From Acidimicrobiia bacterium (GTDB lineage: Bacteria > Actinomycetota > Acidimicrobiia > Spongiisociales > Spongiisociaceae), in the NCBI GenBank assembly GCA_041576165.1, contig JBFGLM010000008.1, positions 1-64,000 on the forward strand: a stretch of 64,000 nucleotides of DNA, read 5' to 3'. Both the position numbers and the translations under genes were made by a program. Below, piece after piece: positions 6,523 to 14,638 of the stretch (positions within the stretch are counted from its first letter, which is position 1; each line of letters begins with the position of its first letter). Under the pieces are notes generated by a model. It made no database searches. It was not told where the DNA came from and saw only the letters and a list, made by a program, of their open reading frames with translations.

Positions 6523-8175
6523 TCATGGGCCGGAAGCGGCGTGGCGGTACACCTCCACGTCAACTGGGGCCAGCGGCGTGTTGCCCAGGATCAAGTCGGC
6601 CGCCTTCTCAGCGATCATCATGACGGGCGCATAGATGTTGCCGTTGGTCACGTAGGGCATGACCGAAGCATCGACAACCCGCAGATTGTCGACGCCGTAG
6701 ACGCGCATCGATCCCGGATCGACCACGGCCACGTCATCTGCGCCCATCCGGGCCGTACACGAGGGGTGCAGGGCCGTCTCTGCATCCCTTTTGACCCATT
6801 CCAGGATTTCTGGGTCCGACTCTACTTCGTGGCCCGGCGACAGCTCGCCGCCGTTGTAGCGGTCGAACGCGGGCTGATTCAGGAGCCGTCGGGCCACCCG
6901 CACGGCCTCGACCCACTCCCAACGATCCTGGTCCGTCGACAGGTAGTTGAACTGCAACGCCGGGTGCACTCTCGGGTCGTCGGACTTGAGCTTGACCGAG
7001 CCGCGTGCGTCGGAGTTCATCGGCCCAACGTGGACCTGGTATCCATGGCCGCCGGCCGGTGATGTGCCGTCATAGCGTATGGCGATCGGCAGGAAGTGGA
7101 ACATCAGGTTGGGATACGCGACCTCTTCGTTGCTCCGTACGAATCCGCCCGCCTCGAAGTGATTCGAGGCACCGAGACCGCGACGGCCAAACAACCACTC
7201 CCCTCCGATTATCGGGCGCCGCCACCAGGCAAGACCTGGAGCGATCGAGACCGGCAGCTTCGATCGGTACTGGATGTACACCTCGAGATGGTCCTGGAGG
7301 TTCTCGCCCACGCCGGGGACGTCGGCGACGGGTCTGATGCCCAACGCCTTCAGCTCGACGGCGTTGCCAACACCCGAAAGCTGCAACAACTGGGGCGAGT
7401 TGATCGCCCCCCCGCATAGGATCACCTCCCCGGCGGTCACCGTGTGGGACCGGCCGCGGTGCTCGTAGTCGACCCCGGTAGCACGGGGTCCGTCAAACCG
7501 AATGCGGGTTGTGAATGCTCGGGTCCTGACCTCTAGGTTGGGCCGGCGGATCACAGGGCGGAGATACGCCACCGACGCGCTGTGTCGCCGGCCGCGGGAG
7601 ATGTTGCGGTCGAATGCGGCGAAACCCTCCTGCTTGTAGCCGTTGACGTCATCGGTGAGGTCGTATCCCGCCTGCTGGACTGCTTCGAAAAAGGCATCGA
7701 ACAGCGGATTGGTGGCCGGCCCCCGCTCGAGAATCAGTGGTCCTTCGCCACCGCGGTACTCGTCGGCTCCGGCGAGGCACGTCTCCATCCGCTTGAAGTA
7801 GGGCAGACAGTGGGCATAATCCCAGGCCTCCATGCCGGAATCTCGCGCCCACTTGTCGTAGTCCATCGGGTTGCCACGTTGGAAGATCATGCCATTGATG
7901 CTGCTCGACCCGCCGAGCACCTTGCCCCGGGCGTGATAGATGCGCCGTCCGTTCATGCACGGCTCGGGCTCGGACTCGTAGCGCCAGTCGTAGAAACGGC
8001 TTCCGATCGGAAAGGCCAGCGCGGCCGGCATGTGGATGAATACGTCCCAGCGGTAGTCCGGGCGACCGGCCTCCAGCACCAGGACGCGGGTGGCCCGGTC
8101 GGCGCTCAGCCGGTTGGCCAGCACGCATCCGGCGGAACCCCCGCCCACGATCACAAAGTCGAATCGGTCCGTCAC
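6523..8175 (-). CDS. betA: Choline dehydrogenase (GMC oxidoreductase)
   Basis: [44 protein letters not shown] and TNGNIYAP motifs; GTG start overlaps the merR stop. Confidence 0.9.
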
Positions 8176-8606
8176 GGGTGCGCCGCCACCGTCTCGTTTC
8201 TTGGCGGCGGACTTTCGATCACGTGGCACACGCAGGTATCCGGCCATGCGTCGGTCACGTTGGCGGCTGCGGTTTGCAGGTGGCCGAGCTCGGCCCGAAG
8301 GCGCTGCAGGTCTTCGATGCGTCTGTCGATCGCAGCCGCCTCTCTCGCCATCGAGTTGCGCACCGTGGCGCACGGCGCCTTCCCCTCAGTGCGAAGGCCC
8401 ACGATCTCGCGAATGTCGTCCAGCGGCAGCCCCAGCGAGCGCAACCGCCTGACGAAGCGCAGTAGGTCGACTTCATCGCGGCCGTAATCGCGATAACCGG
8501 CCGTGGTTCGACAGGGCGGGGGGGTCACGCCGTTTGATTCGTAGAAGCGTATGGCCGAAGCCTCCAGGCCTGAGAGTCGGGCAGCTTCTCCGATGCGCAC
8601 AGTCAC
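8172..8606 (-). CDS. MerR-family heavy-metal-responsive regulator
   Basis: [24 protein letters not shown]; Cys in APCATV plus C-terminal TCVCH. Confidence 0.9.
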
Positions 8607-8650: not shown

Positions 8651-9468
8651 AGGGGGATACCAGTCATCTGCGGAGCGACTGAGATGAAGAAGAACCAGCC
8701 TCCCACGACCACCATGACCCAGCCGCTCCATCGCTTCACGGCGGGGCCGGCCATACGAAGAGGTTGGATGGCGTCCGCTGCGAGCCGCGGCACTGCCACG
8801 GCTGCCACCACCAGAAGCGCCGCAAACACCATGGCGGCGGTGGCAAACGCCCAAGCTGTCGCGACCGGGCCGGAAACGAGGCTCTGTGAGGCCAGACCGG
8901 CCAGCAGCGGCCCCGTTCACCCGAACCCGATCAGCAGGTAGGCGGCCCCATAGAGAAAATCCCGACTCCCAAGGCTCCGATGGCGCATCATGTCGAGGCG
9001 GGAGCCGGCCGCACCTGCGATCCGGTCGAGCCATGAGCCGCCAGCCAGCAGGCGACCGGCCTGGCGCAGTCCCAGCAGAACCAGAAACGTTCCGACTGCG
9101 ATCCGAAACGCCCTGCCGGCGCTGGATTCCGACCCGACGATGTTTCCCGCGGCTAATCCGCCCGCGACGAAGATGACTGTTATCGCGCCGAATGTGACGG
9201 TCACGCCGGCGGCGATTCGTGCGACGCGAGCCGCCGAGCCCGAGCCGCTCGGCGGCCGAGCGAGGATGGTCAGCAGCAGGGGGAACGAGCAGGGGGAGAA
9301 GAATGCTCCGAACCCAGTGGCAGCCGCCAACACCATGGCGCCGCCCGCGGCGTCGCCACCTGGAACGCTGCGGGAGGCGATGAATCCGGCCAGCCCGGCC
9401 AGCAGCACACCGCCGGCGACGATCAGGAACCGAATGCGCCCCCGGCGGCGTTGCGTGAGGTCGTCCAT
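8644..9468 (-). CDS. CcdA/DsbD-beta-like membrane protein, predicted selenoprotein (UGA at 8917-8919)
   Basis: First motif FFSPCSFPLL. ORFs 8917..9468 and 8644..8832 are in one frame, separated by a single TGA in IGFG-U-TGPLL, the second catalytic Cys position. A SECIS-like hairpin follows. Confidence 0.78.
8884..8919 (-). promoter_or_regulatory. Putative bacterial SECIS element
   Basis: UGA ACG GGG CCG CUG CUG GCC GGU CUG GCC UCA CAG; GGCC/GGCC stem with GGUCU loop starting at +19, extendable by CUG/CAG pairing. Confidence 0.65.
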
Positions 9469-9475
9469 CTGAGCG

Positions 9476-9506
9476 ACGCTAGACCTTCAAGTCACTGGAA
9501 GGTCAA
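9476..9506 (-). promoter_or_regulatory. MerR-type promoter with 19-bp spacer and operator
   Basis: TTGACC-19 bp-TAGCGT with ACCTTCC-N7-TGAAGGT dyad (9483-9503); ATG lies 7 nt after the -10, so probably leaderless. Confidence 0.85.
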
Positions 9507-9543
9507 CGGTCCAGGCGGCCGTTTCTATGACCCGGCCACGGAA

Positions 9544-9570
9544 TTAGCACCTTCTTAGGAAGAGTTTGAG
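9544..9570 (+). promoter_or_regulatory. 11-bp-periodic direct repeats (OmpR-type box candidate)
   Basis: TTAG-N7-TTAG-N7-TTGA upstream of the repeat-protein gene. Confidence 0.5.
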
Positions 9571-9633
9571 GCATCCACAGGGCCGCATCTGTGACACTTG
9601 TCCGCAGTTAGCAGACAGTCAGGAGCCCAACCC

Positions 9634-10173
9634 GTGGTGATAGCCAAAAAGTGGAAGGTCGTATCGGGAGGTTTGTCGCTCACCGTCGCCCTCGGCGGCG
9701 GTGCCGCCTGGGCAAATGCCGAGGATGTGACAGTTGAACCCGATGAAACCACCATTCCCACCTTGGCCGATGTGGTCCAGGACAAGTTGACCGAGACGAC
9801 GGTTGTCACCGTCGGCGGTGAGGATGTTCGAGTCAAGATGCCGGGCGATTCGCCGCTGGACCCGCTGACGGTCACGGTTTCGCCTGTGGAGGAGTCGCCA
9901 GTCACGGTTTCGCCTGTGGAGGAGTCGCCAGTCACGGTTTCGCCTGTGGAGGAGTCGCCAGTCACGGTTTCGCCTGTGGAGGAGTCGCCAGTCACGGTTT
10001 CGCCGGTGGAGGAGTCGCCAGTCACGGTTTCGCCGGTGGAGGAGTCGCCAGTCACGGTTTCGCCGGTGGAGGAGTCGCCAGTCACGGTTTCGCCTGTGGA
10101 GGAGTCGCCGAAGACGGTGTCGCCTGCGACAGCAACGCCGGATACCGCATCGCCCGATACATCTGACGACTGA
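9634..10173 (+). CDS. Secreted acidic Ser-Pro repeat protein
   Basis: AGGAG RBS, GTG start; KKWK plus hydrophobic core plus AWA signal; (VTVSPVEESP)x8; ends TPDTASPDTSDD. Confidence 0.85.
   Translation: MVIAKKWKVVSGGLSLTVALGGGAAWANAEDVTVEPDETTIPTLADVVQDKLTETTVVTVGGEDVRVKMPGDSPLDPLTVTVSPVEESPVTVSPVEESPVTVSPVEESPVTVSPVEESPVTVSPVEESPVTVSPVEESPVTVSPVEESPVTVSPVEESPKTVSPATATPDTASPDTSDD
9871..10110 (+). repeat. Coding tandem repeat, 30 bp x 8
   Basis: Unit GTCACGGTTTCGCC(T/G)GTGGAGGAGTCGCCA, contiguous with no spacers; only synonymous differences between units. Confidence 0.98.
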
Positions 10174-11366
10174 TGGCGTTGAGGGCGGTTGACGAACCAG
10201 CCGCCACCGGGGGTTCCCTCGTAGCGGAGCTGCTCGGAGACGGGGCGGTCGATGTGCTCAGCAGTCTCCTCGCGGAGGATGGGCGCACATTGATCTCCGC
10301 TCGTCCCTGGCAGGTCCGCTATCGCCCCCCGGACGCAGTCCGGGTCGTGTACCACGTCGACTGCGAACGTGACGGTCGGGCTGCAACAACGTTCCTTGCG
10401 TTGGAGGCCGGACGTCGATACAAGGGCGGCGTCATCCTCCAGCGAGGATTCGACCAGCTTGTGGCCTGGGAGTATCCCAATGATCCGCGCTTGCCCGGGT
10501 TGGCGAGCATTGTCGAGCGCGAGAAACTGGCACCGATCATCGCTCAGGTCGGCTTCGACCAGGAAATCGTCTCGATCCGCGTCCGTTCCTACCGGGCGAG
10601 CAAACGCGCCGTCGCCGAGGTCACGGGCACGACCAAGCGGGTGTTCGTCAAGGCCGTGAGACCGTCGGCCGCGGAGGAACTGCAACGTCGACACGTGGAA
10701 CTCACCCCGTATCTACCGGTGCCGCACAGTCTGGGATGGTCTGAGGAGCTCGGGATCGTCATCCTGGAAGCGTTGCCGGGCCGGACTCTACGCGACGCCC
10801 TTGCTGATGGGGGACCGGCGGGAGTCGATGTCCGGCCGCTTATTGCAGCTTTGGACCGACTCCCGCCGGCAAGCTCTGATGCGCCGTCAGCGCACGATCC
10901 ATTGGCGGCTACGAGCTCGTATGCCCGCCTGGTTGCCAACGCCACACCCGAGCTAGCACACCTCGCTGGGGAGATCGCCGAGAGGTCGCAGCGGCTCGAT
11001 CGAACCGCTGATCGATGGGTTCACGGCGACTTCCATCTGGCCCAGGTGATGGTCGGCGCTGAGGGAATGACTGGAATCGTCGATGTCGATCGGGCGGGCG
11101 CCGGTGACCCGCGCGACGACCTGGCGACCCTCATTGCCCATGCCCACAGTACGGCACTCGGTGTGACGAACCCCGCGCCCGTAGCCGAGCTCGGGCAGCA
11201 GGCGCTGGCGGTCGCCGAGGACCGCTACGACCGCGACGATATCCGGACGCGCGTTGCGGCGGTGATGCTCGGTTTCGCCGTAGGACCCTTCTCCTCGTAC
11301 GCCGAGGATTGGAGGAGCGACTTGAAAATCAAGCTGGCGGCGGCCTGTGAATGGCTCCCCGCATGA
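10173..11366 (+). CDS. APH/choline-kinase-fold phosphotransferase with N-terminal extension
   Basis: VFVK, VHGDFHLAQV and IVDVD motifs; DPRLPGL motif; TGATG coupling to the upstream gene. Confidence 0.88.
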   Translation: MALRAVDEPAATGGSLVAELLGDGAVDVLSSLLAEDGRTLISARPWQVRYRPPDAVRVVYHVDCERDGRAATTFLALEAGRRYKGGVILQRGFDQLVAWEYPNDPRLPGLASIVEREKLAPIIAQVGFDQEIVSIRVRSYRASKRAVAEVTGTTKRVFVKAVRPSAAEELQRRHVELTPYLPVPHSLGWSEELGIVILEALPGRTLRDALADGGPAGVDVRPLIAALDRLPPASSDAPSAHDPLAATSSYARLVANATPELAHLAGEIAERSQRLDRTADRWVHGDFHLAQVMVGAEGMTGIVDVDRAGAGDPRDDLATLIAHAHSTALGVTNPAPVAELGQQALAVAEDRYDRDDIRTRVAAVMLGFAVGPFSSYAEDWRSDLKIKLAAACEWLPA

Positions 11367-11402
11367 CCTGTGGGATTGAAAGGACGCGTGCGAGGCCCCG
11401 GA

Positions 11403-11463
11403 AGGTACCGGTCCCCGTCGGTACCTAACGAGCGGAGGGCCGGAGCCCTTGCCCGGCCCTCCG
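11403..11463. other. Twin hairpins with C-rich loops (terminator or small-RNA candidate)
   Basis: AGGTACCG-gtccccgt-CGGTACCT then CGGAGGGCCGG-agcccttgc-CCGGCCCTCCG. Confidence 0.5.
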
Positions 11464-11609
11464 TATCTGGCAGGCCACTCCGTGCGCGGAGCCGGCCCGC
11501 AGTTCGACCTCACTGACTCAAAGTGAGAATCGGGCACGAAAGACCACTGAAAGTGATGATCGTCGCCGGGCGGGTGTCGGCTTTCGTGCGCGATAGCCGC
11601 GACGTCGGT

Positions 11610-11725
11610 CCGTGGGGTGACCTGTGGCGGCCTTCTCGGCGATGCCCAGCTGCGATGTGTTGTTGCTCCATCCCTCGGCCACCAATGTGGGCACCTCACG
11701 CTCCTTGTCGGTCAGGTGGAACGCT
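11610..11725 (-). pseudogene. LuxR-type HTH remnant
   Basis: LTDKEREVPTLVAEGWSN-NTSQLGIAEKAATGH resembles LTxRExEVLxLVAxGxSNxEIAxxLxISxxTV with a small deletion. Confidence 0.6.
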
Positions 11726-11823
11726 CGGGCGGAGTGTCTTGCGTTGACCGGTGCGCTGCCGGCACGTCTGTCCAACGACGACTCGCCGCGAGCGGCCGCA
11801 GGGCGAATGGGTCCGGGCCTGGC

Positions 11824-12525
11824 TCAGCCGTCCTCGGCTTCGGTGGGTTTGGTCTCTGTTTCCGGCTCTTCCTCGTCCGGTTCTTCTTTGATGTCGATGT
11901 CCCACCCGCCGGATCCGCGTTCGATCTTGAGCTCAGATTCGTGGTGATCGGCTTCGAACTTGACCTCCAGCTCGTCGCCGTCCACCTCGTCTTGCATCGA
12001 GAATCCCGAGTTGGGCCGGGCCCAGATCAGCAGCACTGTGTCCGGTCCCAGCTCTACCTGGGCTGAGCCGCCCACGAGGTTGAAGGTGCGGATCTCGGGG
12101 GTCGGCGGCGCCACCGCCGGGGAAGCTTCGGCCGTAGTGGTTGTCGGCGTGGTAGTGGCGGTCGTGGGCTCGGTGGTTGCGATCGTGCCGGCCGCAACGA
12201 CCTCCGTCTCCGCGAACGTCACGGTCGTCGTGGACGCTGCGCTCGTAGGAGCCGGCACGCTGGTCGTGGACGTGATGCTCGTAGTCGTGGTCGGCGCCTC
12301 GGCGGGCTTTTCCTCGGGTTCAATCGGTTTGGCCGGGAGGGCAATGGCTGTCGCGTCGAGCGACGTCGTGGAAACGGGTAGTGCGCTGACCTCGGCTGCG
12401 GTGAGCGGTTGGACCGGTCCGTCGACTGCCTGAGCAGCGGCGAGCTGCACGACGCCCCAGGCCAGCGCGCCTGTGCTGACGGTGGCAACCAGCCACGAGA
12501 CAACCATGCCGAGGTTCCGCCTCAC
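11824..12525 (-). CDS. Membrane-anchored/secreted protein with Thr-rich linker and acidic C-terminal domain
   Basis: N-terminal TM segment, T/P/A-rich linker, GGSAQV...WARPNSGF...ELEVKFE; divergent from the two-component system. Confidence 0.8.
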   Translation of the reverse strand: MRRNLGMVVSWLVATVSTGALAWGVVQLAAAQAVDGPVQPLTAAEVSALPVSTTSLDATAIALPAKPIEPEEKPAEAPTTTTSITSTTSVPAPTSAASTTTVTFAETEVVAAGTIATTEPTTATTTPTTTTAEASPAVAPPTPEIRTFNLVGGSAQVELGPDTVLLIWARPNSGFSMQDEVDGDELEVKFEADHHESELKIERGSGGWDIDIKEEPDEEEPETETKPTEAEDG

Positions 12526-12561
12526 GATCCACATTCTGGTGGAGCTGGCGTCATGAGCGGG

Positions 12562-12629: not shown

Positions 12630-13313
12630 GTGGCGTCGGTTCTGATCATTGAAGACGAACAACGCATTCGCGAGCTCCTGTGTAGCGCCCTGGCCCGTTT
12701 CGGACACGACGCTCAAGCGACCGCGACCGCGATGGAAGGCCTCCAAGCGGTGGTCGAAGATCGGCCGGAACTCGTCATCCTCGATCTCGGCCTGCCTGAT
12801 CTCGACGGCCTCGAACTGCTGAAGATGATCAGGGCCGTCAGCGACGTGCCGGTGATCGTCGCCACGGCCCGGGGGCAGGAGACGGATGTGGTCGCAGCGC
12901 TCGACGCCGGTGCGGACGACTACGTGGTGAAGCCGTTCGCAGCCGGGGAGATGGAAGCTCGGGTGCGGGCGGTGCTGCGGCGGTCAGCCGCGCAGGGCGA
13001 GATGGGGCTGATCCGTGTCGGACAGCTCGAGATCGACGCTCGGGGCCGGGTCGCCAGCCTCAACGGCACTGCGCTCGAGCTGAGCCCGAAAGAGTTCGAC
13101 GTCCTGGTGTGCCTAGCCGAACGAGCGGGTGAGGTCGTTTCCAAGCGTGAGTTGCTGGCTGAGGTGTGGCGGGAGCCGTACGGTGGCAGCGAGAAGACAG
13201 TGGATGTCCATCTCTCGTGGCTGCGCAAGAAGCTGGGTGAGGCCGCGTCGAACCCTCGCTACCTGCACACTGTGTTCGGCGTGGGCGTCAAGCTGGTGGA
13301 CCCTGAATTGTGA
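12630..13313 (+). CDS. OmpR-family response regulator
   Basis: IIEDE, ILDLGLPDLDG, GADDYVVKPF and winged-helix TVDVHLSWLRKKL. Confidence 0.95.
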   Translation: MASVLIIEDEQRIRELLCSALARFGHDAQATATAMEGLQAVVEDRPELVILDLGLPDLDGLELLKMIRAVSDVPVIVATARGQETDVVAALDAGADDYVVKPFAAGEMEARVRAVLRRSAAQGEMGLIRVGQLEIDARGRVASLNGTALELSPKEFDVLVCLAERAGEVVSKRELLAEVWREPYGGSEKTVDVHLSWLRKKLGEAASNPRYLHTVFGVGVKLVDPEL

Positions 13314-14638
13314 GGCGCCACGTCAATCTCGTAGCGCTCGCCATCTCCTCGATGGTGGTACTGGCATTCACCGTGCCGCTCGGCCTGCAGATTCGCCAGC
13401 AAACCTTCGATCGAGCCCTATCAGTCGCACAACGGGAAGCGCAATCGATCGCCACTGCCTTTGCAGTTGGCGCGTCGAGCAACGCCGATGCAGACGAGAT
13501 ACGTTTGCTCGCCTCATCGGTCATCAACTCGTTCGGTGGGAATGCCGAAGTCACGATCTTCCTGCCCGACGGAACCACCGAGGGCGCCGGGGCGGTTACA
13601 AACGACAACGTGCGGCGGGCGCAGAGCGGAGCGGCCTTCACCGCTGAGTTGGACCAAGGCGCCGAGGTCCTGGTCCCGATCGCCTTCTCTGAAGGTCAAG
13701 CAGTGGTGCGTGCGTTCGTTCCGAGCGCAGAATTGGAGCGCGGTGTCAGGCCCGCCTGGGCGCTTCTGGCGCTGCTGGGTCTCGCTCTGGTCACCGTCTC
13801 GTTGTGGGTGGCGGACCGGCTCGGCCGCTCCGTCACCGCGCCCGTGCTCGACGTGGCCGAAGCCACCCGTCGGGTGGGAGCGGGGGAGCGGTCGGTTCGG
13901 GCTCCGGTCGAGGGTCCCCCTGAGGTGCAGGAGGTCGCGGCGGCCTTCAACGACCTCGCCGACCGGCTCGATGACTTGCTCAAGGCCGAACGAGAATCGG
14001 TGGCCGACCTCTCTCACCGGCTGCGCACACCCCTCACTGCGTTGCGGCTCCAAGCAGAGGCACTGGATGATGCAGAGGCCGTCGCTGCGCTCATGCCAGA
14101 GATCGAGGGGCTGGAACGCGCCGTAACCCGCTTGATCGAGGACGCCCGCGCTCCCAACCCCGGAGCTGCCGCAGGCCGTTGTGACGTCCGGGCTTTGCTC
14201 ACCCATCGACTTCGCTTCTGGAAGATCCTCGCCCGGGAACAGAACCGACCGCTCCATATAGACGTGCCGGACGAGCTGACCCTGGTCGCGCTATCGGGCG
14301 ATGAACTGGGCGCCGCGCTCGATGTCTTGTTCGAAAACTTCTTCGCGCATACGCCGGCAGGCACCTCCCTATATGTGAAGCTGACGAGCGCGCCCTTCGA
14401 GGTCACCTTGCGATTCGAGGACAATGGCCCCGGCTTTTCGCAGCTGCGAACGTTGACCCGTGGCATGAGCGGGTCCGGCTCGACCGGCCTCGGATTGGAC
14501 ATCGTTCGCAGAGTGGCGGAGAAGGTCGGCGGCCAGATCCGCGTCGCCAATCGGCCGGGGGGAGGCGCCGTCATCGAGATGCGTCTACCCGCTGCAACTC
14601 CTGTTCCAGAGCCGATTTCTCCCGATCCAGCGAAGTGA
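13310..14638 (+). CDS. HAMP-domain sensor histidine kinase
   Basis: Two TM segments, HAMP, H-box DLSHRLRTPL, DNGPG and GSTGLGL. Confidence 0.95.
   Translation: MRRHVNLVALAISSMVVLAFTVPLGLQIRQQTFDRALSVAQREAQSIATAFAVGASSNADADEIRLLASSVINSFGGNAEVTIFLPDGTTEGAGAVTNDNVRRAQSGAAFTAELDQGAEVLVPIAFSEGQAVVRAFVPSAELERGVRPAWALLALLGLALVTVSLWVADRLGRSVTAPVLDVAEATRRVGAGERSVRAPVEGPPEVQEVAAAFNDLADRLDDLLKAERESVADLSHRLRTPLTALRLQAEALDDAEAVAALMPEIEGLERAVTRLIEDARAPNPGAAAGRCDVRALLTHRLRFWKILAREQNRPLHIDVPDELTLVALSGDELGAALDVLFENFFAHTPAGTSLYVKLTSAPFEVTLRFEDNGPGFSQLRTLTRGMSGSGSTGLGLDIVRRVAEKVGGQIRVANRPGGGAVIEMRLPAATPVPEPISPDPAK

Follow-up and report, generated by a model that had tools for sequence, protein, structure and literature searches.

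The window, i.e., the whole 64,000-nucleotide stretch of DNA that was analyzed, carries on its forward strand a gene for a secreted acidic repeat protein, directly followed by a gene for a kinase of the aminoglycoside phosphotransferase (APH) fold. The features of the locus are presented in Table 1.

Table 1. Features of the repeat-protein and kinase genes in the window.
Feature	Position	Strand	Basis or remark
Shine-Dalgarno-like AGGAG	9621..9625	+	8 nt ahead of the GTG start; read from the sequence
Secreted acidic repeat-protein gene	9634..10173	+	179 aa precursor; ORF list and translation
Putative signal peptide, 29 aa	9634..9720	+	Motif K-K-W-K-V-V-S-G, cleavage-type A-N-A; read by eye
Semi-conserved mature N-region	9721..9870	+	L-A-D-V-V (family consensus LDDVV); partner alignments
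D-S-P-L-D in the mature N-region	9847-9861	+	Family consensus DDSLASPFD; partner alignments
Eight tandem 30-bp repeats, (VTVSPVEESP)x8	9871..10110	+	Tandem Repeats Finder
C-terminal tail KTVSPATATPDTASPDTSDD	10111..10170	+	Ser/Asp-rich end, typical of partner proteins
TGATG stop/start overlap	10171..10175	+	TGA and ATG have the A in common; translational-coupling arrangement
APH-fold (eukaryotic-like) kinase gene, 397 aa	10173..11366	+	Pfam PF01636
N-terminal cap domain, residues about 12-100	10206..10472	+	Secondary structure of the models
Lys160	10650..10652	+	Presumed ATP-binding beta-3 Lys; 90% or more conserved in the kinase alignment
Catalytic loop H284-G-D286-F-H-L-A-Q291	11022..11045	+	H284, D286 and Q291 invariant in 79/79 aligned sequences
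Asp304	11082..11084	+	Equivalent of the DFG metal-binding Asp; invariant in 79/79 sequences

Given the AGGAG located 8 nt upstream, the GTG at 9634 was preferred over the TTG at 9598 as the start of the repeat protein. An earlier note on this DNA had described a signal-peptide protein with eight copies of VTVSPVEESP, and all eight were recovered as a single array by Tandem Repeats Finder (9871-10109, period 30, 8.0 copies, 99% matches). The repeat DNA occurs in two block-wise variants, with CCT in units 1-4 and 8 and CCG in units 5-7. When four public DNA runs were mapped on the stretch, neither joints nor indels were found, and the short-read contigs stop at the two array edges (near 9900 and 10080); therefore, the copy number of eight rests on the window's own assembly. 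A pattern scan of positions 9300-11900, covering the sigma-70 and intrinsic-terminator consensus, found no promoter or terminator.

The mature repeat protein has 150 aa, with 20 S/T-P sites (19 SP and 1 TP), 11 D, 21 E, 3 K and 1 R, while F, W, Y, C and H are all missing. A net charge of -28 and a pI of about 4.05 agree with the strongly acidic character reported earlier; the number of S/T-P sites and the lack of aromatic and Cys residues also agree with the earlier note. In Pfam, it yields a sub-threshold match to the low-complexity family Extensin_1 (44.9 vs 105 bits), and it matches neither PF18884 (TSP3) nor PF00395 (SLH), both of which are matched by relatives. The window repeat is less acidic than those of most partners and has a Pro after each Ser; unlike in other clade-A partners (see below), acid residues around its Ser are not enriched at one fixed offset. 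Tails rich in S, D and E, comparable to that of the window protein, were also seen in partners at other loci.

The kinase matches the Pfam APH family with 52 bits (cut-off 23.2) over residues 153-328, in line with the APH-fold kinase that the earlier note had placed across the TGATG overlap. At E up to 0.01, the Pfam scan of the kinase returned APH alone, with no CotH-family or Hanks-type profile. The best NCBIfam match is a weak one to LxmK (NF038156, 29.1 bits, E 5e-7, cut-off 315), the maltokinase model TIGR02457 reaches 11.9 of the required 375 bits, and a search with Mak_N_cap (PF18085) that allowed E values up to 1 yielded zero matches in the genome of the window but did match a control genome. 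The source names of homologues are generic ("aminoglycoside phosphotransferase", "phosphotransferase" or "hypothetical"), and the ESM Atlas matches are "phosphotransferase family protein" clusters only.

The AF2 model of the kinase (pLDDT 94.2) presents a bilobal kinase fold. Residues 105-397 match many APH-type kinases with Z of 16-20; against PsiK, VIA yielded a Z of 20.4 and an rmsd of 3.7 over 277 residues, and further VIA matches include methylthioribose kinase (Z 20.2) and APH(4) (Z 18.6). Peptide-hydroxyl kinases are also found among the structural matches, namely LxmK (9dk3, Z 17.6) and the capreomycin/viomycin kinases (8i85, Z 17.7). About 100 additional residues precede the APH part, which corresponds to the extra N-terminal region noticed earlier. 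In the models, they form a cap domain with two helices, three long antiparallel strands and a short hairpin, a topology that fits the maltokinase cap as described in passages of PMC4306142. Taken alone, the cap domain resembles NTF2-like, VirB8-like and cystatin-like folds with Z no higher than 6.9; against 48,161 chains it had no match with Z >= 8, and the maltokinase cap is absent among the matches listed.

The motifs that the earlier note had called intact, HGD (residues 284-286) and a downstream Asp (304), contain H284, D286 and D304, which are invariant in the 79 aligned sequences (Table 1). APH-type kinases have a catalytic loop H-x-D-x-x-x-x-N followed by a downstream metal-binding Asp; the position that is usually Asn is Gln (Q291) in 79/79 sequences here. 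Judged from the fold, Lys160 is probably the beta-3 Lys, and this presumed ATP-binding residue is Arg in clade-B kinases. Given the invariance of H284, D286, Q291 and D304 and the confident model, the kinase looks catalytically active. The charge of the kinases was also considered as a possible sign of an acid-binding enzyme, and this was dropped, as net charge and pI differ too widely among the kinases (pI 4.7-11.0, median 6.6, vs a background median of 5.3).

The survey of kinase-homologue neighborhoods for secreted acidic frames, which the earlier note had proposed, was strongly positive. Out of 266 loci with a confirmed kinase homologue, the 80 best were surveyed; they come from Acidimicrobiia, from Actinomycetota outside this class and from Chloroflexota, and their carriers include genomes labelled sponge-associated. 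Among the cultured carriers are Pseudonocardia sp. CNS-004 (L032), Saccharomonospora sp. NPDC046836 (L034) and Jiangella asiatica 5K138 (L035), in the last of which the contig stops and no partner is seen. The kinase family itself is larger: an E limit of 1e-30 admits 173 clusters and one of 1e-10 admits 722 (representatives clustered at 50% identity). An acidic, Ser/Thr-rich repeat protein with a signal peptide is adjacent or fused to the kinase at 71/80 loci, three loci are cut by the contig end, and six are partnerless. The automatic test, which looked for an adjacent, same-strand, acidic S/T/P-rich frame, was passed by 62/80 loci, and nine more were added by inspection: L050, L082 and L088 (upstream), L032 (downstream), L025 and L030 (divergent), and L070, L076 and L084 (fused). 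A second pair exists in the window's own genome (G000:C79, L015), where the repeat is (SIESE)x8.

In the window's own genome (G000), 184 of 42,130 open frames (0.44%) pass the same automatic test. When the filter was reduced to acidity only, 67/80 loci still scored, and the median S+T content in their acidic windows was 26%. The own genome contains 723 acidic windows with a median of 8%, and about 1% of them reach 26%. Hence, the hydroxyl richness of the partners is not an artefact of the filter.

In a quick tree, the kinases fall into two clades. Of the 23 rows of clade A, 14 have the partner downstream, five upstream and two divergent, while one has none and one is contig-cut; of the 57 rows of clade B, 48 have it upstream and three fused. 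At these three loci kinase and partner form one frame, and nine of the best 120 protein clusters have lengths of 579-706 aa. The fused forms carry the kinase downstream of an N-terminal hydrophobic signal/anchor segment and acidic repeats, and they form a single clade with a support of 100. In an all-against-all comparison of flanking ORFs, the kinase occurs at 80/80 loci, the largest partner cluster at 42 and the next unrelated family at only nine. There is no third conserved gene in the flanks of the 80 loci, be it a protease, transporter, lyase, cyclase, glycosyltransferase or sugar-pathway gene.

These results bear on whether the two genes are linked in function at all. The pair could be inherited synteny, or a chance neighbor of a fast-evolving surface-protein gene: many loci come from related metagenome-assembled genomes, so that the 71 loci are not independent events, and acidic low-complexity proteins are fairly common, as the 184 frames of G000 indicate. 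Yet the two genes stay together in two phyla whether the partner is upstream, downstream, divergent or fused, i.e., in four arrangements, while the other neighbors all change, the fusions exist, and 71/80 loci stand against a background of 0.44%, which makes a purely accidental pairing hardly credible. The 71/80 paired loci, the several gene orders and the lack of a conserved third gene thus give good support to a dedicated functional link of the two proteins. The recurrence of this two-gene unit across two bacterial phyla suggests phosphorylation of the exported protein by the kinase.

The partners range from 120 to 750 aa, contain no Cys and may present TSP3, SLH or fn3 domains: TSP3_bac (x6) was matched in L002 and L005, and SLH in L008. 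DxDG-like repeats were read by eye in partners, and the clade-A partners show a [D/E]-S-x-[D/E] periodicity. W7 and V10 are invariant in 14/14 aligned partners, and the partner alignments present the linear motifs KWKVV, LDDVV and DDSLASPFD, while the non-repeat parts are unrelated between the two kinase clades. Export of the partner by Tat or by hitchhiking was considered and dropped, as K-W-K is unlike the twin-arginine pattern and RR was seen, by eye, in some partners only.

Conserved motifs of this kind, together with the S/D tails, could serve for docking, and the kinase-fold protein might then be mainly a binder. It would serve in the cytoplasm as holdase or timing factor while the highly charged, disordered partner awaits export; alternatively, the partner would regulate the kinase via the cap domain. 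The stop/start overlap, which suggests matched amounts of the two proteins, is consistent with such a role, as is the proposal, in passages of PMC4306142, that the maltokinase cap is a protein-docking or regulatory site whose pocket could take a linear peptide. The invariance of the catalytic His, Asp and Asp in 79/79 sequences argues for catalysis instead, and the unrelated non-repeat parts in the partners of the two clades fit recognition of composition better than one docking motif. Hence, we regard binding as an improbable main function. A complex prediction of the kinase with the partner precursor, run without controls, gave scores of 0.12 and 0.02, where the mark is 0.32, and counts neither way.

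The earlier note had read the gene pair by the logic of RiPPs, in which case the repeats would be multiple cores, phosphorylated and then eliminated to dehydro-amino acids or cut into peptides, as for class V lanthipeptides and thioamitides. LxmK, the class V lanthipeptide kinase, and Cph/Vph, which act on capreomycin and viomycin, are indeed APH-fold enzymes that phosphorylate peptide hydroxyls; LxmK is both the best NCBIfam match and a structural match of the window kinase, TvaE with its leader peptide (8jsu) appears at Foldseek rank 48, and the repeated cores behind a conserved N-terminal region look superficially leader-like. However, the NF038156 score is far under its cut-off, the vicinity lacks any conserved gene for a lyase, cyclase, protease or transporter, and the HopA1-family lyase (HopA1/LxmY type, PF17914) has 0 matches in the own genome, which is 96.5% complete. 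In addition, the conserved N-terminus has the make-up of a Sec-type signal peptide, AxA site included, the mature window partner contains no Cys, and the putative substrates are whole secreted proteins, which reach 750 aa and carry SLH, TSP3 and fn3 domains. A RiPP-type pathway is therefore very improbable, and this part of the earlier interpretation is not supported.

The linkage is read most economically as phosphorylation of the repeats, and we give about an even chance to the claim that the dedicated kinase phosphorylates Ser/Thr in the acidic repeats of its partner. The kinase, with its APH fold and maltokinase-like cap, would be made in step with the repeat protein by means of the overlapping stop and start codons, and would put phosphate on Ser/Thr of the acidic repeat region, most likely in the cytoplasm, ahead of Sec export and signal-peptide cleavage. 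The product would be a strongly negative, phosphate-bearing polymer, secreted or associated with the wall, which in many relatives would also bear Ca-binding-type repeats; cation binding, protease resistance or cell-surface shaping are its likely roles. Several observations count against phosphorylation of the repeats: the Gln in the catalytic loop throughout the family and the Arg in place of the presumed Lys in clade B, the combination of kinases free of signal peptides with partners that have them, the six of 80 loci with no partner, and the lower acidity of the window repeat with its Ser-Pro context.

The fold itself points partly elsewhere. The best-scoring solved relatives are all small-molecule kinases, and the top full-length Foldseek match is the mycobacterial maltokinase 4u94 (E 6.4e-12, 452 aligned columns), to whose overall architecture, a cystatin-like N-terminal cap and an APH/ELK kinase core, the window kinase seems to conform; this, too, counts against protein phosphorylation. 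O-glycosylation typically targets Ser/Thr/Pro-rich secreted regions. The substrate may thus be a small molecule or sugar, possibly a sugar on the Ser/Thr-rich protein, with the partner acting as acceptor, scaffold or user of the product, e.g., by O-glycan phosphorylation of a mucin-like surface protein. A maltokinase-like glucosamine kinase family in Actinobacteria is the subject of PMC6520443, and clade-B kinases share the D-F-E motif of maltokinase (Mak/Pep2) given in PMC4306142. The likeness to maltokinase has its bounds, nevertheless: both maltokinase signatures fail (TIGR02457, PF18085), the cap alone yields generic matches with Z at or below 6.9, and treS or glgE is not a conserved neighbor in the 80 loci. 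Furthermore, the partner is a secreted repeat protein rather than an enzyme, a metabolic kinase is hard to square with fusion to a non-enzymatic acidic repeat protein, and the pair has neither a glycosyltransferase nor a sugar-pathway gene, nor any other, as a conserved neighbor. We consider a small-molecule or sugar substrate unlikely, given these points.

Phosphorylation of the repeats has a close functional parallel in CotH with CotG/CotB, where a dedicated atypical Ser/Thr kinase places multiple phosphates on the Ser-rich tandem repeats found in structural proteins of a surface layer. In contrast with the acidic repeats here, those of CotB/CotG are basic (Ser/Lys/Arg), and CotH acts inside the mother cell, where Sec export is not involved. 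CotH also belongs to another kinase family, the window kinase matching APH only, and to other taxa. The phosphorylation of the serine-rich repeats of CotB by CotH is described in 10.1101/469122.

For the order of modification and export, the parallel is SdgA/SdgB with the staphylococcal Ser-Asp-repeat (SDR) proteins, where the modifier gene adjoins that of a signal-peptide surface protein with acidic, Ser-containing repeats. According to passages of PMC3794999, SdgA and SdgB are encoded beside the SDR-protein genes, are made with no signal sequence and presumably work on cytoplasmic, not yet exported substrates, and their modification protects the SDR proteins from proteolysis. This system differs in transferring GlcNAc rather than phosphate, and its substrates are sortase-anchored adhesins of Firmicutes. 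The earlier note had reasoned that the kinase has no signal peptide, so that modification would have to precede export; the first point agrees with the translation of the window kinase and with 0/8 of the unfused, long-N-terminus homologues checked. The second is plausible by the SdgA/SdgB precedent and is complicated by the fused lineage, in which the kinase, located behind the partner's signal/anchor segment, would be either exported or export-blocking.

The fused lineage also opens the case for extracellular phosphorylation, with the kinase exported with or within its partner as a surface ecto-kinase. The three fused loci and the nine of the best 120 clusters have the kinase in frame behind the signal/anchor segment and acidic repeats, an order that by the positive-inside rule would predict export of the whole chain, and the partners have wall-binding or extracellular domains. 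ATP supply outside a monoderm cell is doubtful, though, and the unfused kinases, free of signal peptides as far as checked, are the great majority; the fused lineage is a single clade that may be a special case or use an internal start. We consider an ecto-kinase quite unlikely.

Fam20C is a eukaryotic, Golgi-lumen, acidophilic kinase of an unrelated family that makes poly-phosphorylated, acidic, disordered, Ca-binding secreted proteins such as casein, osteopontin and dentin phosphoprotein. As a functional analogy only, the [D/E]-S-x-[D/E] periodicity of clade-A partners is reminiscent of its S-x-E sites. The metal-binding or mineral-templating polymer envisaged by the earlier note remains speculative, its one line of backing being the Ca-binding-type TSP3 repeats or DxDG-like repeats of many partners. 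A bolder and doubtful extension is that monoderm marine and soil bacteria of two phyla make secretory phosphoproteins of their own, in which a cap-bearing kinase would load dozens of phosphates onto acidic Ser/Thr repeats of exported proteins, many of them with Ca-binding-type repeats, to form a phosphate-rich, cation-binding polymer, surface-bound or secreted, as a counterpart of the casein/phosphophoryn type, with kinase and substrate fused, and possibly exported, in one lineage.

The earlier note knew of no characterized system of this kind, and our search of the open-access literature likewise found no description of a module of kinase and acidic repeat protein. Should the repeat protein prove to be modified by its kinase, bacteria would possess a widespread, hitherto undescribed phosphate decoration of exported proteins, and substrate-dedicated protein phosphorylation would extend past signalling and spore coats. 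The fused lineage raises the question of a bacterial kinase working outside the cell. Phosphorylation of the repeats, if true, would also bear on the handling of cations (Ca, Fe), on surface charge and on attachment to hosts or particles in marine Acidimicrobiia and Chloroflexota, and it would give a testable non-resistance role to many proteins annotated just as "aminoglycoside phosphotransferase family".

The repeat protein gene is read from the GTG at 9634 in preference to the TTG at 9598 given by the ORF lister, because an AGGAG lies 8 nt 5' of the former. Read by eye, the first 29 residues of its product resemble a Sec signal peptide, with K-K-W-K ahead of a hydrophobic core and then A-N-A. 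The mature protein of 150 aa presents eight exact copies of VTVSPVEESP, 20 S/T-P sites, 32 acidic versus 4 basic residues and a pI of about 4.05; it lacks Phe, Trp, Tyr, Cys and His. The units vary at one synonymous base only (CCT in units 1-4 and 8, CCG in units 5-7), a blockwise pattern that fits the expectation for recent duplication. Given that short-read contigs from four public DNA runs end at both array edges, the copy number of eight rests solely on the window assembly, and it may be variable or mis-assembled. In all likelihood, the open frame opposite this gene, which reads GDSSTGETVT repeats, mirrors the forward-strand repeats and is no gene. The coordinates of all features are presented in the table.

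Coordinates of the module, its relatives and neighbouring features (window coordinates unless a locus or contig is named)
Feature	Position	Strand	Remarks
Repeat protein gene	GTG 9634 to TGA 10171-10173	+	179 aa encoded
Tandem repeat array	9871-10109 (units to 10110)	+	Tandem Repeats Finder: single array, period 30, 8.0 copies, 99% matches
APH-fold kinase gene	10173-11366	+	397 aa; Pfam APH 52 bits, cut-off 23.2
K160 codon	10650-10652		presumed ATP-binding Lys
Catalytic loop with Q291	11022-11045
Second module copy (L015)	G000:C79 264-713 and 720-1961	+	same genome, other contig
Fused frame, L070	148-2136		one open frame
Fused frame, L076	2858-5002		one open frame
Fused frame, L084	2948-4927		one open frame
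Frame opposite repeat gene	9555-10694	-	379 aa
MerR-family regulator	8172-8606	-
Hydrophobic protein	8917-9468	-	183 aa
Thr/Pro/Ala-rich protein	11824-12534	-	236 aa
OmpR-type response regulator	12630-13313		divergent
Histidine kinase	13310-14638

The stop codon of the repeat gene and the kinase ATG have one base in common (TGATG). The kinase retains H-G-D at 284-286 and Asp at 304, and its residues 12-100 form a domain of their own in the AlphaFold model (pLDDT 94.2). The earlier note's description of a strongly acidic secreted repeat protein, lacking aromatic residues and Cys and overlapping an APH-fold kinase with intact motifs and an extra N-terminal region, is therefore accurate in all its elements.

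In all twelve loci read (L002-L012 and L015), a signal-peptide protein with acidic Ser/Thr/Asp/Pro repeats adjoins the kinase on the same strand; it precedes the kinase in nine of them and follows it in three. One of these loci, L015, is a second copy in the window's own genome: its kinase is 38% identical to that of the window, and its partner carries (SIESE)x8 and the shared N-terminal motif, here R-K-W-R-L-V. The earlier note had suggested surveying kinase neighbourhoods for upstream secreted S/D/P-rich frames. A kinase alignment was run against one genome per GTDB species. Of the 266 relatives confirmed in this way, the 80 best were kept (L018-L097, a few on the same contigs as the loci already read). 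A partner was called automatically for a same-strand frame at most 700 bp away having a 50-aa window with D+E of at least 20%, S+T+P of at least 30% and K+R of at most 4%. This test was passed by 62 of the 80 loci, in comparison with 184 of the 42,130 open frames of at least 70 aa in the window's genome (0.44%). Inspection of the 18 failing loci added nine partners: upstream in L050, L082 and L088, downstream in an overlapping frame in L032, divergent members of the same family in L025 and L030, and fused with the kinase into one open frame in L070, L076 and L084. The total is thus 71 of the best 80 of 266, loci which are not independent since many belong to related Dehalococcoidia genomes. 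Six loci have no nearby partner (L037, L045, L066, L067, L081 and L086), and three (L035, L036 and L093), cut short by a contig end, count neither way.

An all-against-all comparison of flank ORFs at the 80 loci found no third conserved gene beside the pair: the kinase cluster takes in all 80; among partners the largest cluster reaches 42, and the next unrelated family, an ABC ATPase, nine at scattered positions. An ECF-type sigma-factor-like ORF lies downstream of the pair in four loci (L021, L022, L023 and L043) and may be linked to its regulation in a single sub-lineage. In the window, neither Pfam nor NCBIfam gives a match for the hydrophobic protein immediately 5' of the module; neither this protein nor the adjoining MerR-family regulator is conserved beside the module at the 80 loci. 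The protein encoded between the module and the two-component pair likewise matches no Pfam or NCBIfam family. It has a hydrophobic N-terminal segment, a long stretch rich in Thr, Pro and Ala, and an acidic C-terminal region.

A quick unrooted maximum-likelihood tree of 81 kinases presents two deep clades. Clade A (23 rows, the window included) is entirely Actinomycetota, with the partner downstream in 14, upstream in five and divergent in two. Clade B (57 rows) is mostly Chloroflexota with some Acidimicrobiia nested, and has the partner upstream in 48 and fused in three. Given these varied positions, the kinase-partner link has outlasted several rearrangements while other neighbours changed. 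The nested Acidimicrobiia kinases (L039, L041, L046, L052, L054, L070, L076 and L084) also have TDNDG-type partners, which, with their placement in this quick tree, may reflect an inter-phylum transfer of the complete module.

The front end is common to clade-A partners: their signal peptide carries M-x-(I/V)-P-x-K-W-K-(L/V)-V-(A/S/G)-G, and an AxA site, a motif resembling L-D-D-V-V and D-D-S-L-A-S-P-F-D (D-S-P-L-D in the window) are also conserved. The acidic repeat that follows is wholly variable: SIESE, DSPDSV, SPED, TPTPDEE, DSADSD, and VTVSPVEESP in the window. The window repeat is atypical, as each Ser is followed by Pro and acid residues are fewer than in its relatives. In clade B the partners' repeats are of T-D-N-D-G-x-D type and T-P, and a Ser/Asp/Glu tail closes the protein. 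Pfam matches comprise six bacterial TSP3 repeats each in L002 and L005, an SLH domain (L008) and a weak fn3 (L040). From their sequences, the partners are extracellular or wall-associated proteins, many with Ca-binding-type repeats. When the filter is reduced to acidity only, 67 of 80 loci still score and their acidic windows have a median Ser+Thr of 26%, versus 8% in 723 such windows taken from the window's genome, only about 1% of which reach 26%. Hence, the hydroxyl richness is genuine and not produced by the partner filter. The positions of acid residues relative to Ser/Thr are fixed (-1, +2 and -4 in clade A; +1, +3 and -4 in clade B), which in part re-expresses the repeat sequences.

Among 1.84 billion representatives, the kinase family has 1,886 members at E<=0.001, 722 at E<=1e-10 and 173 at E<=1e-30, annotated at source solely as "aminoglycoside phosphotransferase", "phosphotransferase" or "hypothetical"; homologues occur in 14 of the 41 related genomes searched, the window's own included, and none of the conclusions depends on the unpublished genome G028. 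In an alignment of 79 kinases, H284, D286, Q291 and D304 never vary and K160 hardly does; in the clade-B sequences read, Arg takes the K160 position throughout. Q291 occupies, in all 79, the catalytic-loop position where Asn is usual. Residues 105-397 match PsiK (Z 20.4), methylthioribose kinase (20.2), APH(4) (18.6), capreomycin kinase (17.7) and LxmK (17.6); since these APH-type kinases match at similar Z, the fold does not tell the substrate class.

The main rival to a protein substrate is that the kinase acts on a sugar or glycan, which we consider unlikely. The closest solved relatives of the kinase are small-molecule kinases, and its architecture resembles that of a sugar kinase: mycobacterial maltokinase (4u94) heads the full-length Foldseek matches, with E 6.4e-12 over 452 aligned columns. 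By sequence the window kinase is no maltokinase (TIGR02457 11.9 bits versus a cut-off of 375; PF18085 has no match in the genome). The modelled N-terminal domain (two helices, three long antiparallel strands and a short hairpin) gives only generic matches as a lone query (Z <= 6.9); its topology fits the cystatin-like cap described in the maltokinase report, in which the cap is proposed to dock the partner protein TreS, to restrain the phosphate-binding loop and to contain a pocket able to accommodate a linear peptide; clade-B kinases also have the D-F-E motif found there (PMC4306142).

The earlier note's appeal to RiPP logic did not hold. The best NCBIfam match, to LxmK, lies far below its cut-off, at 29 bits versus 315. 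The 80 loci have no conserved lyase, protease or transporter next to the pair, no HopA1-type lyase was found in the window's genome (96.5% complete), and the partners are secreted proteins of full size that lack Cys, so the analogy fails its defining tests.

In the simplest reading, which we regard as about evenly balanced against all others combined, the kinase has the repeat protein as its substrate. This reading is favoured by a two-gene unit without other conserved genes, by coupled translation through the overlapping stop and start, by fusion of both proteins, by the retained catalytic residues, and by Ser/Thr embedded in acid being the sole property common to the partners. Peptide hydroxyls are known phosphorylation targets of APH-fold enzymes, LxmK and the capreomycin/viomycin kinases, among the structural matches, being examples. 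Topology and the atypical window repeat count against it. Of the 120 best clusters related to L076, nine have the fused form (P0163-P0168, P0170, P0172 and P0182; 579-706 aa), which is a single clade in the kinase tree (support 100). The order of the fused form is an N-terminal hydrophobic segment (signal or anchor), acidic repeats, a Ser/Asp tail, a very basic R/K linker and the kinase last. Together with the positive-inside rule, this order predicts export of the whole chain, and it points to an extracellular kinase, internal initiation or a membrane-tethered arrangement. None of the eight unfused kinases checked has a signal peptide. As for the role of the partners, their TSP3 repeats and DxDG-like repeats, the latter read by eye, make cation binding plausible; mineral templating is speculation.

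No description of such a kinase/repeat-protein module was found by the full-text searches made in an open-access library. SdgA and SdgB, which lack signal sequences and whose genes adjoin sdr genes, glycosylate Ser-Asp repeats and protect those proteins against proteolysis (PMC3794999), and CotH phosphorylates the serine-rich repeats of CotB (10.1101/469122), the nearest kinase precedent for the proposed chemistry. As with SdgA/SdgB, the signal-less kinase would modify the repeats of a surface protein encoded by the neighbouring gene before its export. Enzymes dedicated to modifying surface proteins with repeats are a known kind of system, to which the module would belong.
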